Positions 1 through 27,110 of a DNA stretch of 64,000 bases are shown piece after piece. Position 1 is the stretch's first letter; every line of letters starts with the position of its first letter. The notes under the pieces are model-generated. The model worked only from the letters and a program-made list of their open reading frames with translations, was not told where the DNA came from and did not search any database. The stretch covers positions 9,951 through 73,950 of the forward strand of contig DATHPP010000425.1 of the NCBI GenBank assembly GCA_035483795.1, written 5' to 3'. Position numbers and translations under genes: made by a program. Origin of the DNA: Tepidisphaeraceae bacterium. Lineage in GTDB: Bacteria; Planctomycetota; Phycisphaerae; Tepidisphaerales; Tepidisphaeraceae.

Positions 1-1044
1 CAGCACCGGACAGGCCGGCAAGCCGTTCTGAGCCCGGTCGAAATTGGCGTCCAGCAGCACCGTCAGCGCCGTCGGACCCATCGGCGACCCCTCCGGCCCC
101 CGCGGAAAGAGAAACTTGCGGCTGTCTTGAGACAGGATCACCGCCGCGACGCCAAAAATATTCGCGGCCTCTTGGGCGAGCTTGCCGTCCTGCTCGATCC
201 CTATGACCTCTTTGAATCCCGCCAGCAATGCCGTCTTGAGGTTGCGCCCTTTGCCGCAGCCGGTTTCGATGAAGGTGTCGGCCAGGAGGGATGAAAGCTC
301 GCGGTCGAAGCGCAGGCGCGCATCTACACTGCGCCATTTGCCCCCTTTGGACCAGTCGATTTCCGCCCAGCCGTCCTCGCCCTCGAACAGCGGGATGCCT
401 ACATCGCGGGCGAACTGCGCCGCCGATTTGCGGTTGTGCAGCGAGATGGGATGCTTGCGGTGCGTCTCCCACCAGGCCGGGCCGTGATCCTCGTGGTAGA
501 CCAGGCGGCGTGAGATGCCGCCGCGATCGGGGGCGTGACTGTCGCGCTCGATCAGCTTGGTCAGACAGGCGTCGAAGGCTTCGGCGGCGATCAGGAAATC
601 CGGCACCTCGCGATGGACTCTGCGCCACCAGTGCGGCCGGAAGGCGATCAAGTCCGTGCCTGCGGTCGGATCGTCGAAAGCGAACACATAGGACGGGGGG
701 ACGTTGCTGGCGTCGACGACGTTGATCCGCCCGGAATAACAGGCGTCGTTCTTGCCCTCCGCCATCGTCTGGCGCACCGCTTCGTAGGCGTCGGGAACCA
801 GGCAGGCGTCGCAGTTGGTCCAGACAACGATCGTTTCCTCGGGTTCGCCCCAGCAGCCATAATCGAAGATGTCTTTCAGGTAGGGAACGCGGCGGGCATC
901 GTCGCCGAAGGCGCGCCGTGGCGCGATCGGCTTGAGCGTCACCCGTTCTTCGTTGCCCCAGGTCTTGACCGCGTTGTCGTTGCGGCGCCGCTCATCGTCG
1001 CTCTTGGGGGAGTGCTCATGGAAGATGTGAACGATTCGTTCCAC
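1..1044 (-). CDS. glycosyltransferase-like / SAM-methyltransferase-like fusion protein, C-terminus beyond left edge
   Basis: Not in the ORF track because it has no stop inside the window. My translation from GTG at 1044 stays open to position 1: VERIVHIFHEH...IVVWTNCDACLVPDAYEAV..., then ...ADTFIETGCGKGRNLKTALLAGFKEVIGIEQD (glycine-rich SAM motif I). The start abuts the stop of the upstream gene at 1047. Confidence 0.5.
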   Translation of the reverse strand, partial: MERIVHIFHEHSPKSDDERRRNDNAVKTWGNEERVTLKPIAPRRAFGDDARRVPYLKDIFDYGCWGEPEETIVVWTNCDACLVPDAYEAVRQTMAEGKNDACYSGRINVVDASNVPPSYVFAFDDPTAGTDLIAFRPHWWRRVHREVPDFLIAAEAFDACLTKLIERDSHAPDRGGISRRLVYHEDHGPAWWETHRKHPISLHNRKSAAQFARDVGIPLFEGEDGWAEIDWSKGGKWRSVDARLRFDRELSSLLADTFIETGCGKGRNLKTALLAGFKEVIGIEQDGKLAQEAANIFGVAAVILSQDSRKFLFPRGPEGSPMGPTALTVLLDANFDRAQNGLPACPVL

Positions 1045-6976: not shown

Positions 6977-8593
6977 TCAAAGACCGGCTGGAGCCATTGC
7001 GTCTTTGAGGAATTGACGGGCCATTTCGATCAGATGCTGGAGGTGGGTATTGGAGGCGTTCTGGGCGTCGAGCTGCTTTTGCCAGATGGCGCGTGCCGTC
7101 TGTTCCGCCTGCCGGGCATTGGCGGCAAACGCTTCCCGCCCTGCATCCTGGCCGAATTTCAATTCCGGCGACTGGGCAAATGGTGAGCTGAACGGCCCGA
7201 ATTCCGGCATGCCGGCCCGCGCGATCGCGGCCTTTTCGACGCCGACCGTCGCATCCCGCGCCGCCTCGATTTGCTTGCGTTCATCAGCGGTGAGGTCCTG
7301 GCCCTCGCGGAGCAGCTTGTTGAACTCCTCGCGTTTTTCGTTGAACTTCTCGTGAATCTCCAGGATCGTCGCCGCCTTCTTGGCCTGATTGCTGCCCAAC
7401 TCCGCTTCCTCGTGCAACATTTCCAGGCCGGCTGACATCACGGCTCGTCGGCGCTCCTCGCGCTCATCCTGAATCTGGTTCTGGTGTTCGATCGTGGCTC
7501 GGTGATCGGCTTCTGTTTTCTGCGCATCAATGGCCTTCTGGGTTTGATCGTGCTGCCGATAAGCGCGCTCCCTTTCGGCGGCATCGTTGAGGGGAGGCTG
7601 GCCCGCGTCCTTTCGCTTCTGGGCCTCGTCGCGGATGCGATTCAGATCGTCATTGAGCTTCAAGTCGGCGCGGCGTTTTTCTTCCTCGTATTGATTATCG
7701 CGCAGCACCTGCTCGGCCTCGAAACTTTCGTTCAACCCGTGCAGTTCTTCGGCGTCAGCTTCGGCGGCAAGACGCCTCAGCTTTATTTCATGCTCGGCGT
7801 CGTCGGACTCCAATCGCTCGTTGTGCGCGGCGTTGCGGTCGCGCTCCTCACGGCGAAATTTATCGTGGATGTTCTCTATCTCAATCTGCGCAGCCTTGGT
7901 GGTATCCTCGATCGCGGAATCCTTCTGGGCGATGACCCCTTTCTCCAACTCGGTCGGATTGAAGTGGTGTTTCTTGTATTCTTCAAGTTCCTTCCGCAGG
8001 TCCGCGATGCGATCGGCTGCCGCCCGCGCCGCGTTTCCGACCGCCGCCCCCTCCGCGCTCATACCCGGTCGTTGCTGAGCCCGCGCCTCCGCCAGTTCAT
8101 TCAGGGCCGATCGCTGCTCGTGATAGGCGCGGGTGGTTTCTTCCAGCTTCTCGTGCAGATATTTCAGGGTGCCGGCGTCCGAGCGGGCGCGGTCGATCAC
8201 CTTGTCTGAAGCGCCGGCCTCTTTGAGTTGTTCTGCGTGCAAGTCTTTGTAAGCATCGACGACCCGATCGAGGGCACCGACCAGCGGGTCGATTGACGAC
8301 ACCACATCAAGCATGCCTTGAACCTTGGCCTTGTGCAGGTCTTCGGCATCCGTCGCCTCCGAGACTCTTTCCGTGTAGGCCCGCATCCCCTCTGCCGCTC
8401 GATTCAACCCTTCGGCCAAAAGGGCGACCACAATCCCGGCACCGCCGAGCTTCAAGCCATGCTCCAGCAGGCGCGCTCCTCCACGGCTTTCGTGGATAAA
8501 GTTTTCCAGCTTTTCCTTTGCCGACTTATAAGCCTCGGCAGTCATGTCCTTTGCGCGGAGCCAGAAAGTGATTTGTTCGGTGCGCTCGGCCAT
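6977..8593 (-). CDS. tape-measure-like coiled-coil protein
   Basis: 538 aa, extremely E/K/A/R-rich and helical (…KELEEYKKHHFNPTELEKG…). It has a hydrophobic segment GGAGIVVALLAEGL near the N-terminus and sits downstream of the tube/chaperone genes. Confidence 0.55.
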   Translation of the reverse strand: MAERTEQITFWLRAKDMTAEAYKSAKEKLENFIHESRGGARLLEHGLKLGGAGIVVALLAEGLNRAAEGMRAYTERVSEATDAEDLHKAKVQGMLDVVSSIDPLVGALDRVVDAYKDLHAEQLKEAGASDKVIDRARSDAGTLKYLHEKLEETTRAYHEQRSALNELAEARAQQRPGMSAEGAAVGNAARAAADRIADLRKELEEYKKHHFNPTELEKGVIAQKDSAIEDTTKAAQIEIENIHDKFRREERDRNAAHNERLESDDAEHEIKLRRLAAEADAEELHGLNESFEAEQVLRDNQYEEEKRRADLKLNDDLNRIRDEAQKRKDAGQPPLNDAAERERAYRQHDQTQKAIDAQKTEADHRATIEHQNQIQDEREERRRAVMSAGLEMLHEEAELGSNQAKKAATILEIHEKFNEKREEFNKLLREGQDLTADERKQIEAARDATVGVEKAAIARAGMPEFGPFSSPFAQSPELKFGQDAGREAFAANARQAEQTARAIWQKQLDAQNASNTHLQHLIEMARQFLKDAMAPAGL

Positions 8594-8666: not shown

Positions 8667-9596
8667 ATGAAAACGTCAATCGCGGTTCTGCTGGTCCTGT
8701 TGTGTGCCGCCGGTCCACAGCCGACGCGCCCGGCCTGGGACGGGAAAACCTGGCAGCTTGGCTGGGCCCACGGCACGGCGCAGCAGGTGGCGGATCAGAT
8801 CAACGGCGACGTTCTGCGTCTGGGTCGCCGCTGCGCCGAAGCGCGCTCGAGCATCGCCGATGAACGGGTGCGCTTGGGCAAACTGCACGATGCCCGGTTG
8901 GCCACGCTGCACGCCACAGACGCGGCGGGCAAGATCGCCCAGATCGCCGACCTCACACAGCGCCTCAACCAGGCGCGGGCCGATCACGATTCAGCCGCGG
9001 CCATCGCCCTCAGCTCGCAACTGAATCACGACCGCCAGGACCTGGCCGGGATGGAGACGGCGGCCATCGCCGGCGACGATTCCCTCAACCGTTCGCAGGC
9101 GCTCTTGCGCGATCAGGAGGTCCAGCTTGCGGCGCTGGCGAATTCATTGTCCGATGCCCGAGCGTGGCGCGGGCAGATGCTCGATGCCATGCGGAACTCA
9201 TTTCAACTCGCCTGGCCGCTGCACAAGGGCGACGTCGGACTTCTGGGGCCGACCAAAAGCACCGATCCGCTGCGCGATCTGGTCCGAAAGACGCACGGGG
9301 CGCGGGTGTCCGCGATGATCTTCGACAACACCCGCCTGGCCTACGCCACCGAATGGCGCGAACAGACCGAGGAGCACGAATCGATCACCACCAACAAGGT
9401 GGTGCAGCATCCCTTCCTGGTCCAGCCCGACGGCGCGATGCCCGAGGCGGATACCGTCGTGGAGATTGCCGTGCTCGATGAAGACCCGCCCGCCGCCACG
9501 GCGATCGGCCAGGCGGTCGAATTGGCGGTGATCGCGCCGCGGCCGGATCACCCGTTCAGCCAGTTGATGAAGGCGATCGACGACGGGATCAAGTAG
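8667..9596 (+). CDS. secreted coiled-coil protein (signal peptide, possible lipobox)
   Basis: MKTSIAVLLVLLCAAGPQP is a signal peptide. The gene runs opposite to the structural operon and has a GGGAG element upstream of the ATG. Confidence 0.6.
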   Translation: MKTSIAVLLVLLCAAGPQPTRPAWDGKTWQLGWAHGTAQQVADQINGDVLRLGRRCAEARSSIADERVRLGKLHDARLATLHATDAAGKIAQIADLTQRLNQARADHDSAAAIALSSQLNHDRQDLAGMETAAIAGDDSLNRSQALLRDQEVQLAALANSLSDARAWRGQMLDAMRNSFQLAWPLHKGDVGLLGPTKSTDPLRDLVRKTHGARVSAMIFDNTRLAYATEWREQTEEHESITTNKVVQHPFLVQPDGAMPEADTVVEIAVLDEDPPAATAIGQAVELAVIAPRPDHPFSQLMKAIDDGIK

Positions 9597-9723
9597 GAGA
9601 CGCGAAGTCCCCGAGCCGCCGAGCGCCAGTTCTTCCCTGCCTTTTGTTGGCCGAGTCGTAAGCCTCGCCGGTTTCGTCCTTTGCGCGGAGCTTAAACGTG
9701 ATCTGTTCGGTGCGGTCGGCCAT
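9589..9723 (-). pseudogene. truncated duplicate of the tape-measure 5' end
   Basis: My translation is MADRTEQITFKLRAKDETGEAYDSANKRQGRTG..., compared with the tape-measure N-terminus MAERTEQITFWLRAKDMTAEAYKSAKEK. The DNA at 9651-9725 aligns base-for-base with 8521-8595 at roughly 80 percent identity. Confidence 0.6.
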
Positions 9724-10127: not shown

Positions 10128-11354
10128 ATGAACGCAGGACGCACATCGAACTCACTCGCACGACGCGGTTTTTCCTTCACCGAGATTCTGTTCGCCATCA
10201 TGATCCTGGGCATCGGCTTCATTCTGGTGGCTTCCATGTTCCCGGTGGCCATCAAACAGGCAGATACCAGCAAGTCAGAGACGGTCGGCGCTCAACTCGC
10301 CCGCACCGGCGTCTCGTTCGTTCAGCAGATGGGGAGCACGAGCTTCTACCAGATTTCGCCCACGGCCGTTCCTGCTGGCGACAAGCTCTGCGTTCTGCGG
10401 CCGACCGTGCAATTTCCCGGCACTCATCTTTTCACGGATCAGGACTTGTATAACGCCATCAAGCCCGGCAGCGCTGTTGATCCAACGAACGCATTGCCGC
10501 CCTACACGGTGCCGGGAACTTACATCGTGCCTGGTGAGGTGTGGGACTTCATGCCGATCAGCCCAACCGGATTCGGCGCTGAGCCGGTCGCGGCGGTGGC
10601 TTCCGGCAGTGGTTCCGTGCCCACCAGCACGAATCTGAGTGCGCTGCTATGCTCGATGATTTCTGAGAACATGGTGCAGACCGCCGACCCGAAATACGGG
10701 TGGGTGGCATTCTACAAGCGCGACATGATCGAAACGGTGATTGCCCCGCCCGGCGGCGCCATCACGCGATCGCTGGCTTACGCGCCGTCTGCTCAGATCA
10801 TCGTTGTTGCCGTTGCCGACCGCAACGCCACGTCCTACACCACTTCCATCAACCCCAGCGGAACGCCGGCCCTTGATGTGCCCGCCGTTCCCTCATCGCC
10901 CACGCCGCCTGCGGTTGTCACTCAGCCGCCATCCCTGCAAGCGTCCCGATCCGCACCCGGTTCCCCGGCCACGATCATCCCGCCCGATGCGAATAGCCTG
11001 GACGCCACCATTAGCTTCTCCGATCCAATTCAGAACCAGCGGGCCGACGAAGGCGCGTTTGTCATTGTCGCGGCCGACGCCCAGGGGACGATGCCGCTGA
11101 GCAGCCCGTTTCATGGATTGCTGAATGGGCGAATCTACCGGCTTGGGGCATTCGACGCAGGATCGTCGCAGTGGAAGTTCGCGCCGGGGTACGGGCCATC
11201 AACCTCCGACATCACGGCGATGGCCGGCCACAACAGATTTTCCGTCTACCTGATCGGCCGAGGGCTCAACCCGGACGGCTCAACGCCGGTCTATTCGGGG
11301 CTGGCGCAGGACGTGGCCGCCTACAGCACGTTCGTTTCCTGTCCGATCAATTGA
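10128..11354 (+). CDS. prepilin-type N-terminal cleavage/methylation domain protein
   Basis: RRGFSFTEILFAIMILGIGFILVA is a class III signal with the G/F cleavage site and Glu at +5. An AGGAG Shine-Dalgarno sits upstream. The remainder of the protein is S/T/P-rich. Confidence 0.75.
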   Translation: MNAGRTSNSLARRGFSFTEILFAIMILGIGFILVASMFPVAIKQADTSKSETVGAQLARTGVSFVQQMGSTSFYQISPTAVPAGDKLCVLRPTVQFPGTHLFTDQDLYNAIKPGSAVDPTNALPPYTVPGTYIVPGEVWDFMPISPTGFGAEPVAAVASGSGSVPTSTNLSALLCSMISENMVQTADPKYGWVAFYKRDMIETVIAPPGGAITRSLAYAPSAQIIVVAVADRNATSYTTSINPSGTPALDVPAVPSSPTPPAVVTQPPSLQASRSAPGSPATIIPPDANSLDATISFSDPIQNQRADEGAFVIVAADAQGTMPLSSPFHGLLNGRIYRLGAFDAGSSQWKFAPGYGPSTSDITAMAGHNRFSVYLIGRGLNPDGSTPVYSGLAQDVAAYSTFVSCPIN

Positions 11355-11359: not shown

Positions 11360-11992
11360 TCATCGTCCCGCTTTGAGCCGGTCGATCTGCGATTCGATGT
11401 TCTTGGACAAACTCCCCTGCAACTCGGTCTGAATGGACTCGATGCGCGAGGGATTGTTGGCCAATACGCCGATCGCCGTCGGGCCGTACAACTCGCGGAT
11501 GGGCAGGGCGGGGCGCTTCTGCACCAGCGCCTTGCGCTTGCCCTTGACCATTTGCAATCCGGCGCCCGGTTTGCGCTTGAAGACGCCCTGATGTCCTTCG
11601 CGCTGCTGACTGCCGCGCAGGGGCATGGTGGCGATGAAGGCCCCGCGGATCAACTGACTTCCCCCGCCCTTGCGCACCGACACCCTCACGCCCTGCCGCG
11701 TCTGCACGGGATGGTATTCCCCCATGGGCACTTCGTCGTGCGAGACGTTGATGCTGCCGGCGAGCACTTGCGGCGTCGAACGGTGCAGTCTCAGCGCCCG
11801 CAATGCCGCCTTCTGGCTGATGTTCAATTCCTCGGTGATGGTTTTCTTCAAGAGGGTGCGGCCGTGCTCCAGCGTCTTGTTGATCGCCCCCGACAGAGCG
11901 CGGCGGGCGCCGTTGGGGATCGAGGAGAGCATCTTCTTGACGCGGGCCTCCTCAACCGGATCGATCACCAGCTCGAAATGGATATCGGGCAT
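11360..11992 (-). CDS. minor tail / tail-completion protein, gpZ-like (tentative)
   Basis: The layout recalls lambda gpZ: ...ALSGAINKTLEHGRTLLKK...VSVRKGGGSQLIRGAFIATMP...HQGVFKRK...PIRELYGP.... This comes from memory of the family, not from a search. Confidence 0.45.
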   Translation of the reverse strand: MPDIHFELVIDPVEEARVKKMLSSIPNGARRALSGAINKTLEHGRTLLKKTITEELNISQKAALRALRLHRSTPQVLAGSINVSHDEVPMGEYHPVQTRQGVRVSVRKGGGSQLIRGAFIATMPLRGSQQREGHQGVFKRKPGAGLQMVKGKRKALVQKRPALPIRELYGPTAIGVLANNPSRIESIQTELQGSLSKNIESQIDRLKAGR

Positions 11993-11995: not shown

Positions 11996-12799
11996 ATGCG
12001 TCCGATGAGTTCAACCCTCGCCAAGTCGCGCTACCGCGAAGCCCGCCAAGTGTGGACGATGGCGCAAGCGGTTGCAGCCTGGCAAGCGCATTTCCCGGCG
12101 ATCCGCCAGCGCGCGGCCGTGATGGGCCAAATTTCGCGCAATATCGATCAGTCGCTCGGATCGCAATGGCGCGAAGTGGATGTGGAAGCGTTCTTGGCCG
12201 AATTTGATCCCTCACGCTCTTATTCGCGAAAGTGGTGGGAACAGAAACTCGGCAGCGCGGGATTCGCACGCGAGATCGAGATCGACCACTACATGATCGT
12301 GCGCGAGGCCTTCGCCCACACGTTTTCCTTTACCATCCCCTCGACCGAAGCATTAAACGCGATCCGGTCATTCATCGGCGATGCGCCGGTCATCGAATAT
12401 TTCGCCGGTCGAGGCTATTGGGCTTATCTGCTCAACCGGGAGTTTGGCGTGCAGATCACCGCCACCGACCGCAATCAGGTCCAGGGTGAACACAGCTTTG
12501 ACTGCTCGGGTGGCGGAAGCTTCATGCCCGTCGATCCCCTGGACATCGGCGGAGCGCGCCTTCCCAATGGGTTTGTCGCCATGATCGCGTGGATTCCTTA
12601 TCTGAGCACGGCCGCCGATCGATTCCTCAAGCGCATGCAGCCGGGTGAAAAACTGATCCTGATCGGCGAATGGGGCGGTTGCTGCGCCGCCGATTCGACC
12701 TTCGACATTCTGGAAAAGCATTTCGAGCAGGTCAGTGAGTTCGCCGTCCCGCAGTTCTACGGCCTGCACGATCGCGGCTGTTTTCTGGAGCGGCGCTAG
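11996..12799 (+). CDS. class I methyltransferase-like protein (tentative)
   Basis: Only the part of track ORF 11171..12799 from ATG 11996 is credible; the upstream part is antisense to 11360..11992. VIEYFAGRGYWAYLL followed by ITATD resembles SAM motifs I/II. Confidence 0.45.
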   Translation: MRPMSSTLAKSRYREARQVWTMAQAVAAWQAHFPAIRQRAAVMGQISRNIDQSLGSQWREVDVEAFLAEFDPSRSYSRKWWEQKLGSAGFAREIEIDHYMIVREAFAHTFSFTIPSTEALNAIRSFIGDAPVIEYFAGRGYWAYLLNREFGVQITATDRNQVQGEHSFDCSGGGSFMPVDPLDIGGARLPNGFVAMIAWIPYLSTAADRFLKRMQPGEKLILIGEWGGCCAADSTFDILEKHFEQVSEFAVPQFYGLHDRGCFLERR

Positions 12800-13122
12800 A
12801 ACTCCTCCTCCTCCCCATCGATCTTCACCGGCGCGCCGCGGGCGAGCTTGTGCATCTGCTCCTGCTGTCTGACAAACTCGATCGCCTCAAGAAAAATAGC
12901 GGCCTGGTCGTACAGGCCGCCGGCCGCCGGATAGCGTCCGGCTTTGAAATCGGGCAGGAGGTTGAGGATCTCCCATACGTCCGGGGTGACGAAATCCAGC
13001 GGGCAAGCCGTCAATCGCTCGGCCTCGAAGCGCCGGCCTCCGCAGCGCGGGCAGACGCGCTCGCCGTTCTGATCGAAGCCGCTGGTGCCCTGGCCGCCGC
13101 ACTCCAGGCAGGGGATGTTCAA
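12796..13122 (-). CDS. DnaJ-type zinc-finger protein, probably the -1 frame extension of the chaperone-like gene
   Basis: CLECGGQGTS and CPRCGGRRF motifs are present. The track start is TTG. The same frame is open and Cys-rich upstream as far as the A9 run (see finding). Confidence 0.55.
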   Translation of the reverse strand: MNIPCLECGGQGTSGFDQNGERVCPRCGGRRFEAERLTACPLDFVTPDVWEILNLLPDFKAGRYPAAGGLYDQAAIFLEAIEFVRQQEQMHKLARGAPVKIDGEEEEF

Positions 13123-13610
13123 GCCGTCGGCGTCGCAGGTGGGTTTGAAGCACTTTCGCTTGGTGCGGCAGGGGGGATCGGTGAGGCAGAGTTTGCCCCA
13201 GCGGATTGCCGCTCCAATAGCAAGGCTTTTTTTTTGTCTACGTGCATCCTGATGGCGTTCTCCGTGCCCAGATCGAGCAGCTCGTACTTGTCCACCAGAT
13301 CGATGATGTCGTCGAAGTTCGGGATGCCGTTCTCGTCGCGCTTGAACTCGACCGGCTTGCCTTCGCGGTCGGTGAGGTTCTTCCAGCCCATGTAGATGAT
13401 GCCCAGGGCCTCGTCGAGCTTGGCCTCGGATTCTTCATTGCTCAGGCGCGCACTCTGGGAGCGCAGTTCTTCTTCCAGCTTCTGAATCCGCTTGGCCTCG
13501 CGGCGGGTGACGAAGCGGGCGAGAAACGTCGGGCGCGTTTCCTCGGGCTTGGCCTGGTCGGTAATCAGAACCACGGGGAAGGTTTCGGTGGGATCGCAGC
13601 TCAAAGGCAT
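13119..13610 (-). CDS. tail assembly chaperone-like protein (gpG position)
   Basis: 163-aa acidic protein between the tube-like gene and the tape-measure module. It contains GAC AAA AAA AAA GCC near its 3' end and has a low-complexity tail. Confidence 0.5.
   Translation of the reverse strand: MPLSCDPTETFPVVLITDQAKPEETRPTFLARFVTRREAKRIQKLEEELRSQSARLSNEESEAKLDEALGIIYMGWKNLTDREGKPVEFKRDENGIPNFDDIIDLVDKYELLDLGTENAIRMHVDKKKALLLERQSAGANSASPIPPAAPSESASNPPATPTA
13227..13235 (-). other. candidate -1 recoding site (A AAA AAA)
   Basis: A nine-A run on the coding strand. A -1 shift here enters the frame of 12796..13122. Confidence 0.4.
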
Positions 13611-13613: not shown

Positions 13614-14327
13614 TCATTTTTCCTTACGGGGAATCCGACGCACGGGACCGTCTTCAATCTTGTGGCATCCGTTGCAAAGCCATCGCACGTCCAGGCGATG
13701 CTTGCGCGCGTAACCCTTGTGGTGATGGGCGGTGAGCCGTCGTCGTTTCCCGCAGCGTTGACAACGTTCCGGTTTTTGCAATCGTCCATCGCGCAGCGCA
13801 TTTGCGACGTGGTAACGGGCGGCGATTTTTCCCGCGTGGTGTTGTTTCTCGCGGGCATGGGCGGCTGCGAAAACCCGTTTGCCGCGGGCGGTTTCCCGGT
13901 ACTGCTTTTGGTACTCGATCAGCTCGTCGCGGTGCTGGCGATAATATCGATGCGCACGTTTTTTTATTCGCGACTTCACCTCCGGTCGCGATCGATATTC
14001 CGCACTTTCTGCTAAATAGCGCTCGCGGTAGCGCAGGTAACGGGCACGCTGTTGCGCAGCCACTTTCTCAGGATTTTCCAAACGGTAGCGCCGCACTGCC
14101 GCCAGTCGTTCCTTGCGATGACGCCGATAGTGTTCGCGGGACCGCTTTCGCAGTTCATCTCCCTTGGCGATCGTCCGAGCCTTCATGTAGGCGGATACGC
14201 ACTTCTTACACTTGGCTTGGCGACCATCTTTAGACCGCGCATTTTTGCTGAATGATGAAAGAAAAAGGTAACGGCGACATTTCTGACAGCGCTTTTTTGC
14301 CATCCCCGGACAATACCCGAATGGCAT
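13614..14327 (-). CDS. HNH endonuclease (free-standing, homing-type)
   Basis: The C-terminus CQRCGKRRRLTAHHHKGYARKHRLDVRWLCNGCHK is an HNH motif. The N-terminus is a zinc ribbon (CQKCRR...CKKC), and the middle has basic Y/R-rich repeats. The flanks look lower in GC. Confidence 0.75.
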   Translation of the reverse strand: MPFGYCPGMAKKRCQKCRRYLFLSSFSKNARSKDGRQAKCKKCVSAYMKARTIAKGDELRKRSREHYRRHRKERLAAVRRYRLENPEKVAAQQRARYLRYRERYLAESAEYRSRPEVKSRIKKRAHRYYRQHRDELIEYQKQYRETARGKRVFAAAHAREKQHHAGKIAARYHVANALRDGRLQKPERCQRCGKRRRLTAHHHKGYARKHRLDVRWLCNGCHKIEDGPVRRIPRKEK

Positions 14328-14348: not shown

Positions 14349-15311
14349 CTAATTAAAAGTTAATGAATAGTCATCGTCTCCAGAAGTCCGGGTCGCAATA
14401 AACTCCAACGTGTCCGCCATCACGCCCTCGCGGTCCTCATCCTGCGGCGGGTTATTCAACTGCGCCTTGGGGGCGGAGAACTGGAGTTGGTTGCCCGCCG
14501 GGCCAGCGGTGAAGGCGAAGTTGTAGGTGGTCTGCGCGGTATGGGCCGCGAAAAAGTCCAGCGTCGAGAGCAGGTAGCTTTCCGGGGCAATACGGATTAG
14601 AGGCTCGCGATCGGTGACGATGCCGCCGCGGAATCCGGTGCCGACCGGGGTGGAAGCGCTATCGACGGCGGATTGGTCCTGTCTCAGATAGAGCTTATTT
14701 CCCGAATGAAACTCGAAATTGGGGAAGCGCATCGACTGGCCGCCCACCGTGACCGTCACTCCCGCGAAGCGCGGCGGAATCGTCGTCGGATAGGTAATGC
14801 CGCCGGGGATGGCCGTCGTCGAAGGGCTCTGCCAGACGCCGTCGAAAGTCCACTCGAAATAGATTGGGTTCCCCGCCTGCGCCCGGATGACGAAGTCGCC
14901 AGCGCAACCGGCCAGGAGCTTCAAGCGCCCGGCCTGGAACAAACCGATCGAGATGGTGTTGATCGGGCTGGCCGGGGTGGGGGTGAAGGGAGAGAAGGGG
15001 CTGCTGGTGCCGGGACCCAAACCGCAAGCCGGCAGAAGCAAGCTGGCCCAGGCCGGGGCGCCGGCAGTGGAGAAGAACTCGGTGCGGAACGTCGCCTTGC
15101 CGGCGCGGGCGCCGGGGATGGTGAGCAGCTTGGAAAGATACTGCTGTCCCTGGCGGACATTGGGCTTGATGTCCGGGGTGATCTTGGGATCGAAGACGGC
15201 GCTGAACAGTTGGCAGTCGGAGCTGCCGGGCGTGACGACGACGCCGGTCGTAGCCTCGAGTTTTGCGCCGAAAACTCGGTTGCGTACTAACAAGTTTGGG
15301 TCGAACGCCAT
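14349..15311 (-). CDS. major tail tube-like protein
   Basis: 320-aa beta-rich protein upstream of the chaperone-like gene, with a C-terminal acidic tail. The call rests on position and composition. Confidence 0.5.
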   Translation of the reverse strand: MAFDPNLLVRNRVFGAKLEATTGVVVTPGSSDCQLFSAVFDPKITPDIKPNVRQGQQYLSKLLTIPGARAGKATFRTEFFSTAGAPAWASLLLPACGLGPGTSSPFSPFTPTPASPINTISIGLFQAGRLKLLAGCAGDFVIRAQAGNPIYFEWTFDGVWQSPSTTAIPGGITYPTTIPPRFAGVTVTVGGQSMRFPNFEFHSGNKLYLRQDQSAVDSASTPVGTGFRGGIVTDREPLIRIAPESYLLSTLDFFAAHTAQTTYNFAFTAGPAGNQLQFSAPKAQLNNPPQDEDREGVMADTLEFIATRTSGDDDYSLTFN

Positions 15312-15978: not shown

Positions 15979-17904
15979 TCACGCCCGGAAGCTGTACGGA
16001 TCGTTCCAGTTGGTTCGGTATTCGACGTAGACGCGCGTGATGACCCCTTCGTGCTCGCCCGCCTCGCGCTCGAACCACGACGGCGGCGCCGGCAGCGTAT
16101 TGGCCGCCAGACCGCCGCGGTGGGGATCGAGCTGGAGCGCCTTCTCGATGTCGGCGCGGACGATCAGGACCAGTTGATCGGCGGGGATGGGCGGTGAACC
16201 GCTCGGTCCTGGCTCGGGCTGGGCGCAGGTGGCGATGATCTCGAATTCCTGAATCCAGCATTGGATGTTGTTGCACTGGAGTTCGCGGTTCCACTGCGCT
16301 CCGCCGAGTTGCACGTCGGCGACGACGGTGATGCCGTCCGTCCCCACTTCACCCAAGCGATCGGGCTCGGTCGAATAGCAGTTGCACTGGTAGCCTTGCT
16401 CGACCGAGATGTCTCCGACGACCTGGAGGATGTTCTGGCGGATGCGCTCGATCAGGGGGAGATTGCCGCCCAGGAGTGTGGCGCCGGCGGTGACGATGCT
16501 GAACGAGTGCTGATGGAAGAACGAGCCGGTGGCGAATACGTCGTTGGCCTGGACCGTGAAGGTGCTGCTGCCGGCGGTGGTGGGCGTGCCGGAAATCGTC
16601 CCCGTCGAAGCATTCAGAGTGAGGCCGGCCGGAAGGCTCCCGGATGCGATGCTGAAATTCTGGCTGGTTCCCTGCGTCTTGGCGATCTGGAGGGCCTGAG
16701 AATAAACCTGGCCCACGACCGCACTGGCGACTGAGGCGGTGGTGATGTTGATCAGGTCAAACTCGACGACGCGGTATTTGAAACTTTCGTAACCATAGAG
16801 GACGTTGTTGACGGGATCGAAGGCGTGACCCGGCTCCAGTCCGGTGAAGGCGCTTTGCGAAGTTCCCGCATTGCTGCTGACCCAATCGGCGGCGTTGAGG
16901 TTCTGGCTGGCGTTGGCGCCGTTGAAACTGGAGGTCGCGCTGTTGGGAACGATAAACTCGACGATGCGGACGTTACTGGAGTCGCAAGCCCAGAGCCGGT
17001 TCGCCGTCGAATCGTAATTCAGATCGTCGGGACCGTTCAATCCGTTCTGCGTATAGGTGCTGCCGGCGTAGTGGGTGAAGTCGGCTTGCCCGAGCACGAA
17101 GGTCGCGTTCTCACCGTTGATGCCGCTGCCTGATCCGGGGGGCGCGCTAAAGCACAAGATACGGTTGTTGGCCGAATCGGAGACGAACACGCGGGCATTG
17201 ACCGGATCGTATGCGATCCCAAAGGGGCTGGTCATCCCCGCTTGTCCGTTGCCTGCGACCTTGGCGGTGAAACTCGATTGACCCAGGACGAACGAGGCGG
17301 CCGGGTTGCTGGCGCTGGAATCGTAGACGCCGTTGGCGACCGGGAAGCACATGACCCGGTTGTTGCCCGAGTCGCTCACAAACAATCTTCCGTTGACCGC
17401 GTCATAATCGATGTCGTCCGGTCCGGCCAGTCCGGTTTGGGTTGTGGCCGATCCGTTGTGAGTAAAGTCGGTCTGCCCGATGACAAAAACCGCTGCGGCA
17501 AAATCGGTCAGATTCCCCGGCCGGCAATCGAAACAGAGGACGCGACGGAGGCCGCTATCGCTGAGGAACAAGCGGGCGTTGGCGTTGTCATAGCAGAGAT
17601 TGCAAAAACGAAAAGTCTGTGACGTGGTCGCCCCGCTGCCGACGACGTTGAAATTGGCGGCGCCCAGCACGTGAATGGGAAGGATGGGCATCGTTCCCGG
17701 CACGCGATTGTTGTTGTCCAGTTGGAAAACCAGGACGCGGTTGTTTACGTCGTCCGCCACAAACAGGCGGTGCTGAACGGTATCGAGCGCGATGCTGGTG
17801 GTCTGATTGACTCCCTGCGAAGTGGTACTGCCGCTGGGCGAGTTCACGACGTTGGCCGTGAAGCTGGTCTGACCCAGGACGATGGAACAGTTCAGGATGG
17901 CCAT
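15979..17904 (-). CDS. NHL-repeat beta-propeller plus Ig-like domain protein with a distinct C-terminal domain (virion-displayed?)
   Basis: Repeated ...NRVLVF / NNRVMCF / NNRILCF motifs are NHL-type. SGSLPAGLTLNASTGTISGTPTTAGSSTFTVQA resembles a bacterial Ig-like domain. The last ~150 aa are unrelated to the rest. Confidence 0.7.
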   Translation of the reverse strand: MAILNCSIVLGQTSFTANVVNSPSGSTTSQGVNQTTSIALDTVQHRLFVADDVNNRVLVFQLDNNNRVPGTMPILPIHVLGAANFNVVGSGATTSQTFRFCNLCYDNANARLFLSDSGLRRVLCFDCRPGNLTDFAAAVFVIGQTDFTHNGSATTQTGLAGPDDIDYDAVNGRLFVSDSGNNRVMCFPVANGVYDSSASNPAASFVLGQSSFTAKVAGNGQAGMTSPFGIAYDPVNARVFVSDSANNRILCFSAPPGSGSGINGENATFVLGQADFTHYAGSTYTQNGLNGPDDLNYDSTANRLWACDSSNVRIVEFIVPNSATSSFNGANASQNLNAADWVSSNAGTSQSAFTGLEPGHAFDPVNNVLYGYESFKYRVVEFDLINITTASVASAVVGQVYSQALQIAKTQGTSQNFSIASGSLPAGLTLNASTGTISGTPTTAGSSTFTVQANDVFATGSFFHQHSFSIVTAGATLLGGNLPLIERIRQNILQVVGDISVEQGYQCNCYSTEPDRLGEVGTDGITVVADVQLGGAQWNRELQCNNIQCWIQEFEIIATCAQPEPGPSGSPPIPADQLVLIVRADIEKALQLDPHRGGLAANTLPAPPSWFEREAGEHEGVITRVYVEYRTNWNDPYSFRA

Positions 17905-19375: not shown

Positions 19376-20404
19376 ATGAAGAAGAAATGCTGCGTTTGCG
19401 GTGATTTTTTCACGGCATCGAAATTCACGCCGAACGTTCAAATTCTCTGCGCATCTCCGGAATGCAAATCCAAACATAAGCGGAAGCTTGCCGGCTCGGA
19501 GTCGAGGGGGAGCAAAAAGGCATGCGTGATATGCGGGCTGCAATTCAGTTGTTGGACCCGTCTTCAACTGGCATGCTCTTCAAAAAAATGCCAACGAAGT
19601 CTACAGGATTCTCGCCGAAGAAGCAGAACAGGGCTCATATTAGCGAACAGTAAATGCTCGATTTGCGGTCGGGACTTCAAGACGGCGTCCAAAAATCGCG
19701 TGACCTGCGGCGCCCTGCGGTGCCGGCGTCAATCCGCAATCCGAAGAAGCCGCCTTCTTTCCGGTTGGATTGCCAAAGAACGGCGCTGCGAATCTTGCGG
19801 ACGCAGTTTCCATCCTCGCCACCGCGCACATATTTGCTGTAGCAAAGTCTGCATGAATAAATGCCAAGCCCTTCGCGGTTATCTCTCCCGCGGGTGGCAT
19901 CCGATGATGATGCGGTGTCCGTTTTGCGCTAAAGAATTTATGCCGGACACCCGTCGCCGAGTGACGTGCGGCGCACTCGAATGCAAATCTGCTCTTTCAC
20001 GCCAGAGGGCAGGCGTTGAGAAACGAGGGAAAAAAGGAATCTGTCGTTTTTGTGGAAAGGATTTTCTCGCTAGAAATCGTCGGCAGATAACATGCGGTAA
20101 TACCCCCTGCCGGCGCAAACTTGACGCCAAGGCGCAGCTTTTCAATTGTTCGATCTGTGGAAGGGCGTTCTGGACATCGCGACATGACCGCATTACATGC
20201 GGCGACCCGAAATGTCAGAAAGAACACTGCCTAGCCCGGCATCGAAATAGAGACCCAATCATCCGGATGAAATTGACGCCGCAGGACTTGGAACGCCGGC
20301 GTCAAAAAGCGTATGACAAATATCACGCGAAACATGATAGAGCGAAGATGGACGAACTCCGACGAATGAAACTCATTTTGAAAGGAGCACTGACCAATGC
20401 CTGA
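19376..20404 (+). CDS. protein of seven tandem zinc-ribbon modules
   Basis: Seven modules of CxxC-(13-16 aa)-C-x4-C: CCVCG..CASPEC, CVICG..CSSKKC, CSICG..CGALRC, CESCG..CSKVC, CPFCA..CGALEC, CRFCG..CGNTPC, CSICG..CGDPKC. The gene sits in a plus-strand island that looks lower in GC. Confidence 0.7.
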   Translation: MKKKCCVCGDFFTASKFTPNVQILCASPECKSKHKRKLAGSESRGSKKACVICGLQFSCWTRLQLACSSKKCQRSLQDSRRRSRTGLILANSKCSICGRDFKTASKNRVTCGALRCRRQSAIRRSRLLSGWIAKERRCESCGRSFHPRHRAHICCSKVCMNKCQALRGYLSRGWHPMMMRCPFCAKEFMPDTRRRVTCGALECKSALSRQRAGVEKRGKKGICRFCGKDFLARNRRQITCGNTPCRRKLDAKAQLFNCSICGRAFWTSRHDRITCGDPKCQKEHCLARHRNRDPIIRMKLTPQDLERRRQKAYDKYHAKHDRAKMDELRRMKLILKGALTNA

Positions 20405-21849: not shown

Positions 21850-22668
21850 CTATGCCAGTTCATACGTCTTCACCGCCCCCGGCGCAATTCCCTCCTCCAT
21901 CAACGTCGGCACGTCCAAGCTGAAATCCGCGGGCTGGCCCTTCTTCGTCCAGGCGTCCAGCGCCACGTCGTTACGGTGATGGGCCACGATGCACAGGGTC
22001 TTGCCGGGATAGTTCGCGTGGATGTTCGTCATCTCGTCCAGAAACCGGCTCTTGAAATCGTTGAACGATTCGCCGCCGGGAATCTTCTCGTCCGGGTGCT
22101 CGATGAAATAGCGCAGCTTGGGCAAGACGCTCTTGGATTCCACCCCCTGGAAAATCCCCGCATTCAACGGCCGCAGCGCCTGCGTCGAATAGAGGATCGG
22201 CGCCCCGGTCGCTTGGGCGATTTCCCCTGCCGTTTCGCGGGCTCGCCCCAGATCGGAGCTGATGATCCCGTCCAGAGGCGTATCCGCAAGCTGCTGACCC
22301 ACGGCGATGGCCGCGGCTTTGCCCTTGGGCGAAAGCGGAACGTCCACCCAGCCGCGAATCTTGTCCCCGTCCTCGTTCAGTTGAGTATCGCCATGACGGA
22401 CGAAGACCAGCTTGGTGGGTTGCGAGGCAGGGGGGGTCACGGATTCCTCGTTGTGGAGAAGGGCCAATCCCCGCGAGGCTTCGACGGCACGCAGAGTCAC
22501 CGCCGGATCGCTGCGATCGACTAAAGTCCGGTCGCGCTCGAAGTCCGCGCGCCAGATGGAGACGGGGATCATCTCCTGCCTCTGCCGGGCATTCTCAGCC
22601 AGGACAGCGGAGACGGCCGCGGAAACGGCGATGGCGACCACATCGGGATCGAATGGGTTGGGCATCAT
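21850..22668 (-). CDS. histidine phosphatase superfamily protein (phosphoglycerate-mutase-like)
   Basis: LVFVRHGDTQLNEDGDKIRGWVDVPLSPKG contains the RHG motif, and GRARETA follows downstream. Confidence 0.8.
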   Translation of the reverse strand: MMPNPFDPDVVAIAVSAAVSAVLAENARQRQEMIPVSIWRADFERDRTLVDRSDPAVTLRAVEASRGLALLHNEESVTPPASQPTKLVFVRHGDTQLNEDGDKIRGWVDVPLSPKGKAAAIAVGQQLADTPLDGIISSDLGRARETAGEIAQATGAPILYSTQALRPLNAGIFQGVESKSVLPKLRYFIEHPDEKIPGGESFNDFKSRFLDEMTNIHANYPGKTLCIVAHHRNDVALDAWTKKGQPADFSLDVPTLMEEGIAPGAVKTYELA

Positions 22669-22679
22669 TGATTTCCAAA

Positions 22680-22737
22680 GGTGGCGGGAAGGTGGCGGGG
22701 AAGGTGGCGGAAGGTGGCGGAAGGTGGCGGAAGGTAG
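22680..22737. repeat. tandem decamer array (GGTGGCGGAA)n, about 5.5 copies
   Basis: ggtggcgggaa ggtggcggggaa ggtggcggaa ggtggcggaa ggtggcggaa ggtagcc fills the junction between the stop at 22741 and the start at 22668. Confidence 0.85.
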
Positions 22738-22740
22738 CCT

Positions 22741-23103
22741 TTATCCCATCGCTGCTTCGGCGTGAATCGTCCAGCCCCCCAGGTCCTGACTGATGATGGC
22801 GGTGATGCGGAAAGTCGTCGGGGTATCTTGAATCTGCCAGGGACCGACCAGCTTGTCGCCACGCTCCGGCCGGGTGGTCAATCCTCCGGCGGGACTTGCG
22901 GCGATGAACATGGAGACCATCTTCACCCGGTACTTCTGCCCCTCTTTGATGACCTCGGGCTGATGGCGATCGACGACCGGAGTGATGTTGATCGAAGGCT
23001 GTACGACTCCCCCGACCGGCTTGGGCGTGTAGACCCAGGGCTCGCCGAAATCCAGGAGCATGGCCGCAGCGTCGGCGCCGAGTGCTGTATCGAGGGAGCC
23101 CAT
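22741..23103 (-). CDS. head-tail joining protein-like (gpFII-like, tentative)
   Basis: 120 aa. Its size and pattern (…GEPWVY…GDKLVGPWQI…FRITAI…GGWTIHAE) recall head-tail connector proteins. Confidence 0.4.
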   Translation of the reverse strand: MGSLDTALGADAAAMLLDFGEPWVYTPKPVGGVVQPSINITPVVDRHQPEVIKEGQKYRVKMVSMFIAASPAGGLTTRPERGDKLVGPWQIQDTPTTFRITAIISQDLGGWTIHAEAAMG

Positions 23104-23173
23104 CAGTTAAAACTCGAAACTCGAATGACGAATGACGAAACCGGAGCGCTACACGTAGCGCTACACGACGCAT

Positions 23174-23716
23174 CTAACCGTGGTGCCGGAAAAGACTTAC
23201 GCCGCGGGCATTTAGCCAGGGGGTGAGCAGGTTCTCGAAGATGTTCCGCTCCAGCCGCCAGCGTTCCGGGCTGCGATTGCCGCCGGCCTTCACCCCGTCA
23301 AAGTCCGCCTCACCCTGCCAGTCGGCACCGAAGACCTCGATGCGCTTGCACCCGATGAACTCGGCATAGACACAGGCGGCGATGGCGGTGAAGACGCGCC
23401 ACTGCGGAACCCCGCCTGCCCCTTGGCAATGAGGATCGAGGCTCTCGAAGCTGGGGAGTACCCGCCAGGGCCAGGGCTTGTCGGTCTGTCTCAGATGCTC
23501 GATCGCGCCTTCGGTGGTCAACAGCTCGGGCATGCCGCGGACGTGGGCGCGTTCGGCTTCGATCAGCGGATAGTCTCCGGCGGCCCAGACATCGGCCGGG
23601 AAGAACGCGCTCGCGCGGTTGACGGCGATCACGATGACATCGGCGCCGAAGCCAATCGGGGACGTGGCAGATAGTGACGTACCGGGGCAGAGGATGGCGG
23701 CGGTGGGGGGGTTCAT
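23174..23716 (-). CDS. DUF115/MptE-like (Maf-type glycosyltransferase-like) protein, tentative
   Basis: AAILCPGTSL...DVIVIAVNRA...DVWAAGD and a later IEVFGADW follow the pattern I associate with DUF115 and sialyltransferase-like enzymes. Confidence 0.35.
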   Translation of the reverse strand: MNPPTAAILCPGTSLSATSPIGFGADVIVIAVNRASAFFPADVWAAGDYPLIEAERAHVRGMPELLTTEGAIEHLRQTDKPWPWRVLPSFESLDPHCQGAGGVPQWRVFTAIAACVYAEFIGCKRIEVFGADWQGEADFDGVKAGGNRSPERWRLERNIFENLLTPWLNARGVSLFRHHG

Positions 23717-24288
23717 GGTGCGAAGTAGTGGTAAACCGGCCCCTCCAGAAACACCTCGCTCTTGAGCAGCGGGCGCAATCGGTGCGAGTAATCCCGGTCC
23801 TCCCCGTGCGTCAAAGGCTTGAATCCCGTTGCGATGGCCAGCTCGGTCTTCACCGGGTTCAGATGATTCGGTGGCCGGAAGTAGGTCTTGCTCCCCGGAG
23901 GCCCGGTTTCAAACCAGCGCGAATACTGCATCGAATGAATGAATGTTTCGGGCTTGGCCGGCGCCGGTCGCACGAGAAGACCTTCCAGCCCCACCACATC
24001 GGGATTCTCCTGGAGCGCAGTCAGAATCCGCGGGCAATAGTCGTCGGTCACCAGGTCGTCGTCGTCGATGAACGAGCAGTAGGGGATCGACCATTCTTGC
24101 GGACCGCGGAGCAATTCGTTGCGCTTCTGGCCCACCGGTTTTTCCCCGGCGTCGGTGTGGATGAAGATCGATATCTCGGTGATCGAGCACTGCGCTGAGA
24201 GGCGGTCCATCAGGCGCTGGAGCTGCCCGACGCGATGGTTCAGATGGCAGATCAGGATCGCCAGGCGGGGCATGCGGGCATGCGCCAA
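23713..24288 (-). CDS. GT-A (family 2-like) glycosyltransferase
   Basis: RLAILICHLNHR...KRNELL...CSFIDDDDLVTDDY carries a DxD motif. It overlaps the next gene by 4 nt. Confidence 0.6.
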   Translation of the reverse strand: MAHARMPRLAILICHLNHRVGQLQRLMDRLSAQCSITEISIFIHTDAGEKPVGQKRNELLRGPQEWSIPYCSFIDDDDLVTDDYCPRILTALQENPDVVGLEGLLVRPAPAKPETFIHSMQYSRWFETGPPGSKTYFRPPNHLNPVKTELAIATGFKPLTHGEDRDYSHRLRPLLKSEVFLEGPVYHYFAP

Positions 24289-24291
24289 AAG

Positions 24292-24891
24292 TCAGAGGGG
24301 GAGACGGGGAGACACGGGGACACGGAGACAGCGTTTGTGTAGCGCCCGGCGCACCATGTCTTTGACGACCGAGGGGTGGACGCAGCCCGGCGGGGAAGGC
24401 AGGTGCAGCTTGCCGTAATCCGCCGCAACTTCGTCCGCGATTTCTTCGATCTGTTCGGCGATTTCAGCCTTTTCTTTTTCGGTCAAGGCCGCGCGTCCGA
24501 ACTGTTCCCCCCCGCGGTTGATCGCCTCGCGAATGCCCCGCGTGAAGGCGTCCAGCTCCTCGTAAGGACCGCCGCCGCGTGGGCCTGCGTTGCGGATTTC
24601 GGGTTCCAGCCCGGCGAAATAGTCGAGCGTCTGGCCGTTCCGGCACTGGCAGTCCTTGACGACGATCGTCCCCTGCGGCGGCGTTTGGAGCGTCATGTCG
24701 CGGGTGCATAACGGCTCGTCCCCATCGCGGAGTGAGTCGTCGATTTCCGGCGGCGATGGGACAACGCCCGGCGCCAGATCGCGCACCTCTCCCGTCCCCG
24801 CGCAGCGCTCGCACTTGCGCGTATGCAACAGCGTGATGGCGCCTTTACCTTGGCAGTCGGGACAGATCATGACTGATCCTTTCTCGCACAC
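24292..24891 (-). CDS. DnaJ-type zinc-finger protein
   Basis: CPDCQGKGAI and CERCAGTGEV motifs near the N-terminus, followed by an acidic helical C-terminal half. The last codons are encoded by an octamer-array repeat. Confidence 0.55.
   Translation of the reverse strand: MCEKGSVMICPDCQGKGAITLLHTRKCERCAGTGEVRDLAPGVVPSPPEIDDSLRDGDEPLCTRDMTLQTPPQGTIVVKDCQCRNGQTLDYFAGLEPEIRNAGPRGGGPYEELDAFTRGIREAINRGGEQFGRAALTEKEKAEIAEQIEEIADEVAADYGKLHLPSPPGCVHPSVVKDMVRRALHKRCLRVPVSPRLPL
24294..24330. repeat. octamer-array element (family B)
   Basis: gagggggagacggggagacacggggacacggagacag at the junction between the stop at 24292 and the start at 24288. Confidence 0.65.
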
Positions 24892-25135
24892 GTTTCATTG
24901 TCCACGGCGCGATCCCCCGTTCGCCCCCGTTGTGTTCGGCCGTCATCAGAATCCAGTGAATCCGCAGCGCCCCGATGGTCATCAAGAGGGAGGCGCGGAG
25001 CGCTTGCCGTCGTGAAATCGTTGACGGTCCCCAAGGCGTTGCGGCGCGAAGAAAACGGTAATGGCTGATCGCGAGTGCCGGCATCCGCAGGATGAAATCG
25101 GGCCAGCGCCGCGGCGTGAGTTTGAACGGCTTCAT
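24845..25135 (-). CDS. hypothetical protein
   Basis: The ATG at 25135 overlaps the upstream stop (25132) as ATGA, which supports translation. However, the 3' end overlaps the next ORF by 47 nt. Confidence 0.3.
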   Translation of the reverse strand: MKPFKLTPRRWPDFILRMPALAISHYRFLRAATPWGPSTISRRQALRASLLMTIGALRIHWILMTAEHNGGERGIAPWTMKRVRERISHDLSRLPR

Positions 25136-25365
25136 GCGTTCAGTATCTCCAGACAGGTGCGTACCGACACGTGCTCCTCGATCTGGCGCGGTTCGGTCAC
25201 GGCAAAGCCGGCCAGGCGGTAATCGTGCAGGCGGCTCGTCAGCGTGCGGAGGGAAATATCCAGGCTCCGCGCCGTCATCGTGCGATGGCCCTCCAGCGCC
25301 GCCAGACGATCGAGGATCGCCGCCCGTTCGATCTCGGCTAACGTGGGCTCGATCACGGCTGACAT
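25132..25365 (-). CDS. Fis-type HTH DNA-binding protein
   Basis: LAEIERAAILDRLAALEGHRTMTARSLDISLRTLTSRLHDYRL matches the HTH_8 (Fis / sigma-54 activator C-terminal) pattern. Confidence 0.6.
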   Translation of the reverse strand: MSAVIEPTLAEIERAAILDRLAALEGHRTMTARSLDISLRTLTSRLHDYRLAGFAVTEPRQIEEHVSVRTCLEILNA

Positions 25366-26141: not shown

Positions 26142-26467
26142 TTGCAGTGTGACAGCACGGACGCCGCTTGTTTCTGAGTCAGGACTTTGCGCTTGAACGC
26201 CTTGAGGGCTTCTTCATTCGTGTCGTAGAAGGACCGGGCCAGGAGCAGATTGTAAGCCTCTTTCTTGTGCTCCAGGGACAGCGGGCGACCGGCCATGTAC
26301 TCGGTATAAGCCTTGGCGATCAACTCCCACACATAGATTTCCCCATCGACGCCAAACAGGTCTTTTTTGAAATTGGCGATCACCTGCTCATCGGTGAATC
26401 CGTCCACTTCCGCGAGCTTGGCGTGGAATTGTTTGATGCGGTCTATTTGCGAAACGGTGAGGCTCAT
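26138..26467 (-). CDS. hypothetical protein
   Basis: The ATG at 26467 (MSLTVSQIDRIKQF...) overlaps the upstream stop as ATGA. Confidence 0.5.
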   Translation of the reverse strand: MSLTVSQIDRIKQFHAKLAEVDGFTDEQVIANFKKDLFGVDGEIYVWELIAKAYTEYMAGRPLSLEHKKEAYNLLLARSFYDTNEEALKAFKRKVLTQKQAASVLSHCK

Positions 26468-26997: not shown

Positions 26998-27000
26998 GGA

Positions 27001-27110
27001 GGAAAGAGAGAGGGGGAGTGGGTGAGGGGGAGAGGGGGGTGACGGGGGAAAGCCTAGCTTTGCTTTTCTCCCACTCGCCCACTCGCCCCCTCTCCCCCTC
27101 CTCCCGCCTC
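27001..27110. repeat. family A G-run element, inverted pair
   Basis: The G-rich arm is 27001-27048, the spacer is aagcctagctttgctttt, and the C-rich arm tctcccactcgcccactcgccccctctccccctcctcccgcc is 27067-27110. The C-rich arm overlaps the 3' end of 27054..27791. Confidence 0.75.

Follow-up and report, generated by a model that had tools for sequence, protein, structure and literature searches.

A probable G/GT-type programmed −1 frameshift at a run of nine A residues in an unannotated family of phage tail assembly chaperones

What could be the meaning of a run of nine A residues (A9) located near the 3′ end of a short open reading frame (ORF), at a point where the −1 frame is also open and leads into a second ORF? 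This question is raised by a locus read on the minus strand of a 64-kb stretch of contig DATHPP010000425.1 (61% G+C; hereafter, the window), a phage morphogenesis region transcribed mostly from that strand. There, gene G, a 0-frame ORF of 163 amino acids (13119..13610) defined by the ORF list and its translation, by its relatives and by an AF2 model, is followed by ORF B, which consists of 108 amino acids, has a TTG start (13122..12796) and lies in the −1 frame relative to the former, (13610 − 13122) mod 3 being equal to 2. The first-pass annotation had proposed that the tail-chaperone-like product of the first ORF is fused to the second by a G/GT-like −1 frameshift, and the comparison reported here supports this proposal through the arrangement of the frames, the presence of in-phase slippery heptamers, the conservation of the junction, the synteny and a link of the family to phrog_313. 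The locus is very likely, in our opinion, a G/GT-type programmed −1 frameshift in the tail assembly chaperone pair of a lambda-like siphophage morphogenesis module.

In the 3′ portion of gene G the 0-frame codons are GAC AAA AAA AAA GCC, with the A9 run occupying positions 13235..13227 of the minus strand and containing at 13233..13227 the heptamer A_AAA_AAA, which is in phase with the 0-frame and is the sole fully canonical in-phase heptamer in the window's overlap. This is the only run of at least nine identical bases in the 64 kb; in dinucleotide shuffles of the window such runs number 0.18 per window on average and 11 of 100 shuffles contain at least one, so that the A9 run is not very improbable by itself and what makes it significant is its position and the fact that relatives conserve it. 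On the minus strand the −1 frame stays open from 13434 to 12796; according to the ORF listing, its 104 codons before position 13122 contain not a single ATG, GTG or TTG, nor is the TTG at 13122 preceded by a Shine-Dalgarno-like sequence in the window. Upon a conceptual −1 slip on the heptamer, A 13227 is reread as the first base of an AGC (Ser) codon and translation yields a fusion of 271 amino acids in which ...RMHVDKKK is followed by SLAIGAAIRWGKLCLTDPPCRTKRKCFKPTCDADGLNIPCLECGGQG..., the junction peptide being ...HVDKKKSLAIGAAIR; the part of this fusion read in the −1 frame, here called T (12796..13227, minus strand), comprises 143 codons and a stop and is defined by translation, by the alignment of the fusions and by an AF2 model. 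The 0-frame tail past the slip site, ALLLERQSAGANSASPIPPAAPSESASNPPATPTA, consists of 35 codons of low complexity, rich in Ser, Ala and Pro. All these elements, i.e., the run and its codons, the −1 frame open from 13434 and start-less before 13122, the read-through from ...VDKKK into the −1 frame and the low-complexity tail, had been described in the first-pass annotation and are found in the sequence just as they were written there.

With the fusion as query, a word-indexed search of proteins yielded nothing beyond the window's own 163-aa protein, while an exhaustive search of a representative library returned 519 relatives, most of which cover fusion residues 1–130 (the N domain) and a smaller set of which cover residues ~165–260 (the C domain). 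A Lys-rich motif, [DE]-K-K-K, occupies the same position in all the N-type proteins and precedes a Ser/Ala/Pro tail whose length varies. Two entries (P0003 and P0134) start at the junction, at residue 126, and two others (P0035 and P0094) are single-ORF fusions; all four align across the segment encoded by 13123..13226. Using an alignment of six C-domain sequences, 80 IMG/VR loci and one contig of a Phycisphaerae metagenome-assembled genome (MAG) were retrieved, and hidden Markov models of the N and C domains were run on all the stop-to-stop ORFs of 84 loci. Of the 83 viral or MAG loci, 82 have the C-domain ORF immediately after that of the N domain and shifted to the −1 frame, a +1 shift being never observed; the same −1 arrangement is present also in L002, L085, L087 and L088. 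The distance between the slip site and the C domain is nearly constant in the relatives (31–36 codons) and the 0-frame tail varies between 0 and 64 codons. As to the hosts of these phages, the search of the GTDB genomes with the N-domain alignment found nothing, so that there is no evidence of common prophages in sequenced species; the only genome match to the family, the 5.3-kb contig of the aforementioned Phycisphaerae MAG (L084), offers a weak clue to the host.

The slippery sequences were surveyed in 61 distinct overlap sequences, 60 of which contain an in-phase heptamer; this heptamer is A_AAA_AAA, within runs of A7–A9, in 44 cases, A_AAA_AAC in 12, G_GGA_AAA or G_GGA_AAG in four and C_CCC_CCA in one, whereas none was found in one overlap (L081). 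The A-rich type is therefore present in 56 of the 61 overlaps and this, together with the frame arrangement just described, bears out the conservation of both A run and −1 frame that the first-pass annotation had suggested looking for among related phages. The AAAAAAC heptamers are in phase 0 in 12 cases out of 12, with none in phase 1 or 2, and yet another sequence, T_TTT_TTT, is found in L085, also in phase and at a distance of two codons upstream of the lysines. The closest sampled relatives of the N domain (L002, L087 and L088, 42–48% identity) likewise have A9, in two codon phases, and a run of exactly nine A residues occurs in 22 of 55 distinct family sites. The occurrence of varied canonical heptamers, phase-locked at one homologous position, points to ribosomal −1 frameshifting as the mechanism common to the family.

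A stem-loop, which is a candidate stimulator of the frameshift, is predicted at 13156..13223 of the minus strand, beginning 4 nt after the heptamer. The window stem-loop (70 nt) has a minimum free energy of −29.1 kcal/mol and a z value of −3.8, as opposed to +0.9 and +0.75 for the control segments, while a longer fold of 97 nt at the same site has a weaker z (−1.83). Throughout the family the mean downstream z is −1.26, to be compared with −0.67 and −0.21 in the control segments; subdivided by type of site, the mean is −0.18 for A9, −2.41 for A8 and −1.77 for A6–7, a comparison to be regarded only as a lead in view of the phylogenetic non-independence of the loci. In the L044–L054 clade, an A8 site is immediately followed by a 0-frame stop (GAA AAA AAA TGA, e.g., L044 5889..5899), so that the G product ends exactly at the slip site, and a strong stem-loop follows (z from −1.1 to −3.0, reaching −4.1 in related clades). 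A stimulatory Shine-Dalgarno-like sequence upstream of the slip site was considered as well; GGAGG or GAGGA occurs on its immediate 5′ side in many relatives, and the window shows no more than an AGGA lying 13 nt upstream, but since this element overlaps conserved Glu/Asp codons its contribution is inseparable from coding constraint and the candidate was set aside.

The nature of the A9 run makes it necessary to consider a second route by which the same 271-aa fusion could arise, namely that most of the GT stems from transcriptional slippage, with A10 transcripts produced from A9 and translated in the ordinary way. Indeed, at runs of nine A or T residues the RNA polymerase of bacteria slips with high efficiency, an example being Thermus dnaX (PMC5009743), and the sites having exactly nine A residues are on average devoid of downstream structure and occur in all three codon phases, as expected if phase is irrelevant. 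However, the relatives with A6C, GGGAAAA/G, T7 or C7 sequences cannot rely on this mechanism and are strictly phase-locked; furthermore, the strong stem-loop of the window is typical of ribosomal frameshifting, and A8 transcripts would open a +1 frame of ~115 codons in the window, a wasteful by-product. Transcriptional slippage as the main source of GT is accordingly judged to be unlikely, although the one route does not exclude the other and slippage of RNA polymerase at A9 may add to the ribosomal one.

Far less probable than this is that the length of the run was miscounted and that the true genome has A10 (or A7), hence a single gene of 271 amino acids and no recoding. A fused form is viable, or at least has been assembled, for one locus (L003, encoding P0035) is a true in-frame fusion without slippery sequence (L003 2736..2774, CAG CGG AAA TCG GTC AAG) and in another (L086, encoding P0094) an A10 run at 694..703 brings the two halves in frame; this A10 may be genuine or may stem from an error in the homopolymer, the contig being 1.5 kb long. 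The concern about homopolymer length expressed in the first-pass annotation therefore has some ground. Nevertheless, the identical 163-aa product of the A9 form is listed on three contigs in the gene index; one of these, a 60.5-kb ENA contig (L001), was examined and does not differ from the window over a length of 20.5 kb, so that it does not constitute independent evidence, yet it speaks against a one-off assembly slip. Moreover, the loci displaying the −1 arrangement come from many metagenome assemblies, in which independent errors would not agree in direction, and the shift persists in relatives lacking a long homopolymer at the site.

A constraint on how the −1 frame is expressed comes from the start-less segment between slip site and TTG (13123..13226, minus strand), which encodes the best-conserved motif, SLAIGAAIRWGKLC, and three of the eight conserved cysteines of the fusion (C142, C148, C154, C168, C171, C187, C190 and C203, in GT numbering). 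In the alignment of the conceptual fusions, the junction motif of the family, K-[IL]-R-[LV]-A-x-x-[IL]-[RQ]-[YF]-G-x-[IL]-C, is among the best conserved of the whole protein, and this motif together with C142, C148 and C154 is kept in 41–43 of 44 dereplicated fusions. Being upstream of TTG 13122, these three cysteines are translatable only through the shift; cysteines in this position had been taken in the first-pass annotation as a sign that the segment is translated, and three of them prove to be conserved. For the T part, the sole mode of translation would be as a C-terminal extension within GT, the 271-aa fusion. That ORF B is instead an independent gene encoding from TTG 13122 a zinc-ribbon protein of 108 amino acids, with the A run being incidental, is what the gene callers annotate and what many C-only database entries of 82–117 amino acids would suggest, but it is highly improbable in the face of some 35 codons conserved as protein upstream of that TTG, of the lack of start codons and Shine-Dalgarno-like sequence noted above and of the many relatives in which a TAA stop just before the run makes the −1 frame open exactly at the slip site. 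The C-only entries are in fact gene-calling artefacts, as gene calling starts at the first available start codon.

The genomic context gives further support to the G/GT assignment. In the relatives the order is gpZ-like gene, tail-terminator-like gene (~155 amino acids), tube homologue, N/C pair, a gene of ~500–540 amino acids and the homologue of a 351-aa protein of the window, which corresponds to the Z-U-V-G/GT-H order of lambda; in nearly all of them BLAST synteny places the tube homologue 0–400 nt upstream of G. The window contains, all on the minus strand, a tail tube (major tail)-like protein of 320 amino acids (14349..15311; phrog_290 tail, E 3.4e-10), G/GT and, at 6977..8593, a charged, helical, tape-measure-like protein of 538 amino acids designated by its position, which is 29% identical to a 540-aa protein encoded directly after G/T in L002; a gene of 512 amino acids occupies the same slot in L087. 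The order tube, G/GT, tape measure is therefore kept in the window, yet it is interrupted by a minus-strand HNH endonuclease gene between the tube gene and G (13614..14327; phrog_2340 endonuclease, E 6e-29) and by ~4 kb of other genes, since between GT and the tape-measure-like gene there are an opposite-strand gene of 267 amino acids, a gpZ/Neck1-like tail completion gene (11360..11992, minus strand; phrog_27, E 3e-27) and opposite-strand genes. Thus, the placement of the locus between tube and tape measure genes, as given in the first-pass annotation, holds for the order, which in the relatives is a direct one, but not in the sense that the window locus is directly flanked by the two.

Which protein family is involved? 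The N domain is modelled by AF2 as a confident fold (pLDDT 92.8), and among 46 members of the N-domain family eight match phrog_313 'Tail assembly chaperone' (best E 1.7e-5) and four match phrog_8233 'tail assembly chaperone' (best E 1e-3). Membership in the chaperones would therefore be transitive and modest if judged by homology and strong if judged by architecture. A tblastn search of 50,697 GenBank phage records gave no match to the family, and sequence searches of the PDB with the window proteins returned nothing significant. We regard the family as a probable, hitherto unannotated member of a familiar class, that of the frameshifted tail assembly chaperones.

Several observations weigh against the reading of the locus as a G/GT-type frameshift, or at least temper it. 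It rests wholly on comparative sequence analysis, and many of the related loci are closely akin, so that the counts given above overstate the number of independent events. Neither half of the window protein matches Pfam, including the Phage_TAC families, and the window protein does not match phrog_313 or phrog_8233 at E ≤ 0.01; a Foldseek search of the PDB with the N-domain model gave no significant match, and with BFVD the matches are weak (E 0.01–0.1), several of the targets being labelled tail assembly chaperone. No family match was obtained for the 538-aa protein, whose tape-measure label is due to position only, and the gpZ-like gene, located downstream of GT in the window, is found ~1.5 kb upstream of the tube gene in the relatives, a displacement indicating that the tail module of the window phage has been rearranged. 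Finally, A_AAA_AAA is less shift-prone than A_AAA_AAG in E. coli (PMC5009743), and A9 is a classic RNA polymerase slippage site, so that GT in the window phage may be reached by either route.

With these points being taken into account, the G/GT-type frameshift suggests the following sequence of events. Most of the ribosomes would stay in the 0-frame and stop at 13119, producing a 163-aa G whose N domain is folded and whose Ser/Ala/Pro tail is disordered, whereas a minority would slip by −1 on A_AAA_AAA (13233..13227), probably aided by the stem-loop 4 nt downstream, and go on to 12796 to produce the 271-aa GT; both the occurrence of the slip and its rate are what we infer. By analogy with lambda gpG and gpGT, coating of the tape measure protein would fall to the G part and recruitment of the tube protein to the T part, with a fixed G:GT ratio presumably set by the slip frequency.

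The T part contains a zinc-ribbon-like core, CLECGGQG...CPRCGGRR (13042..13110, minus strand), whose cysteines (C168, C171, C187 and C190) are invariant or nearly so. Its two CxxCxGxG-type repeats, of which CLECGGQG is a full and CPRCGGRR a partial match, correspond to the family consensus CPxCGG...CPxCGGRG, and the cysteine-rich portion is followed by a helical C-terminal region; the AF2 model of T, in which no metal is included, is of moderate confidence (pLDDT 70) and a Foldseek search of the PDB with it gave no significant match. It is probable that the eight conserved cysteines make up two Zn(Cys)4 sites, of which the CxxCxGxG...CxxCxGxx ribbon would be one. The designation of this domain as a DnaJ-type zinc finger, proposed in the first-pass annotation, is sustained as far as the two CxxCxGxG-like repeats are concerned. 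The family matches, on the other hand, are all below threshold: the window T part has no Pfam match to PF00684 (DnaJ_CXXCXGXG), for which sub-threshold matches occur in three of 18 relatives (best E 0.0066); its score against Anti-TRAP (PF15777) is E 0.044, with 14.2 bits against a cut-off of 32; and its PDB profile matches to Anti-TRAP and DnaJ are not significant (E 0.04–2). The term 'DnaJ-type' thus denotes a resemblance of motif and not membership in the family. Furthermore, the cysteine-rich domain of DnaJ has four repeats and the window T part has two, four further conserved cysteines of the latter lie outside the CxxCxGxG motif and nothing in the window locus points to a J-domain or to a co-chaperone context. 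Among the PHROG families the T domain has only a weak match to phrog_9961, of unknown function, and none to an annotated family.

A broader but decidedly speculative proposal, to which we assign a low probability, is that two mechanisms coexist within this one chaperone family, having been switched in evolution at the homologous site, and that T is a zinc-dependent tube-recruiting module, which would be a new type for the tail chaperones. According to this proposal, the lineages endowed with a short phase-locked heptamer and a stem-loop would use ribosomal −1 frameshifting, while those having a bare A9 without downstream structure would depend largely on slippage of RNA polymerase.

As to the other genes of the window, the head functions are represented on the minus strand by a gpA-type large terminase (62737..61307), a lambda-family portal (57461..53796) and a capsid gene (40842..38944). 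A DNA methylase gene (59866..61380) adjoins that of the terminase, and the interval between head and tail modules contains glycosyltransferase-like, methyltransferase-like and histidine-phosphatase genes (21850..31176 and 48268..49974, minus strand). In the relatives the interval between tube gene and G either is empty or houses a small, unrelated gene, and the HNH gene found there in the window has probably entered the tail module as a free-standing homing endonuclease; another HNH-like gene is present on the plus strand at 19376..20404.

Upstream of the tape-measure-like gene, ~90 nt beginning with an ATG (9630..9723, minus strand) duplicate with ~80% identity the 5′ end of the 538-aa gene (8500..8593); the 44-aa ORF of the duplicate reads MADRTEQITFKLRAKDETGEAY... 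and the full gene reads MAERTEQITFWLRAKDMTAEAY..., and a plus-strand gene of 309 amino acids (8667..9596) lies between the two, an arrangement which suggests the insertion of a cassette at the 5′ end of the tape measure gene. On the opposite strand with respect to the tail genes, the 408-aa protein encoded at 10128..11354 (plus strand) has a prepilin-type N-terminus, FSFTEILFAIMILGIGFIL, and no Pfam match; an opposite-strand protein with a weak match to N_methyl (PF07963) is found near the tail genes of L087 as well (14384..15283, minus strand). The 408-aa protein may be a phage-borne pseudopilin and may hint at a host in the Planctomycetota or in a related phylum. A protein of 641 amino acids (15979..17904, minus strand) combines NHL repeats with a He_PIG Ig domain, and one of its segments has BLAST matches ~1.0–1.4 kb upstream of G in the relatives, where the ~155-aa gene is located; in L087 the gene found at this place, between the gpZ-like and the tube gene, matches the tail terminators of phrog_4204 (E 7.7e-4). 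The 641-aa protein may be a tail terminator bearing a large N-terminal decoration.

What are the consequences of recognizing this locus as a probable G/GT pair? Gene callers split it into two hypothetical proteins of 163 and 108 amino acids and mis-annotate hundreds of relatives in the same way, so that the recognition corrects the annotation and, at the same time, marks the tube and tape-measure genes in uncultivated phages having no relative among the GenBank phages. It also defines a new type of T domain characterized by eight conserved cysteines. The wide range of sites found at one and the same position (A9, A8, A6C, GGGAAAA/G, T7 and C7, with or without stem-loop) represents a natural test set for the tools that predict frameshifting, and the family appears suited to asking when slippage of RNA polymerase replaces that of the ribosome. 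The mechanism itself being a textbook one, the finding is to be considered useful and not surprising.

The obvious term of comparison is the lambda gpG/gpGT mechanism and the frameshift conserved in the tail genes of dsDNA phages (Levin, Hendrix and Casjens 1993; Xu, Hendrix and Duda 2004, 2013, 2014; here in the form in which PMC5009743 relates them). The window locus shares with lambda G/GT the presence of two overlapping ORFs between tube and tape measure genes, a start-less downstream ORF in the −1 frame, and a short and a C-terminally extended product having the N domain in common; some of the relatives even use the heptamer type of lambda, G_GGA_AAG or G_GGA_AAA. Unlike in lambda, the slippery site is an A_AAA_AAA inside A9 and the 0-frame runs for 35 codons past the slip, and the window protein has no detectable sequence similarity to lambda G or T. 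Also the T of the window, with its 143 residues and eight conserved cysteines, would be unlike that of lambda. A further parallel is offered by the dnaX genes of E. coli (A_AAA_AAG, ribosomal) and of Thermus thermophilus (A9/T9, transcriptional), with which the locus shares an A run in lysine codons and two products with a common N-terminus; in the case of dnaX, however, the shifted product is the shorter one, whereas at the locus described here the shift lengthens the protein.

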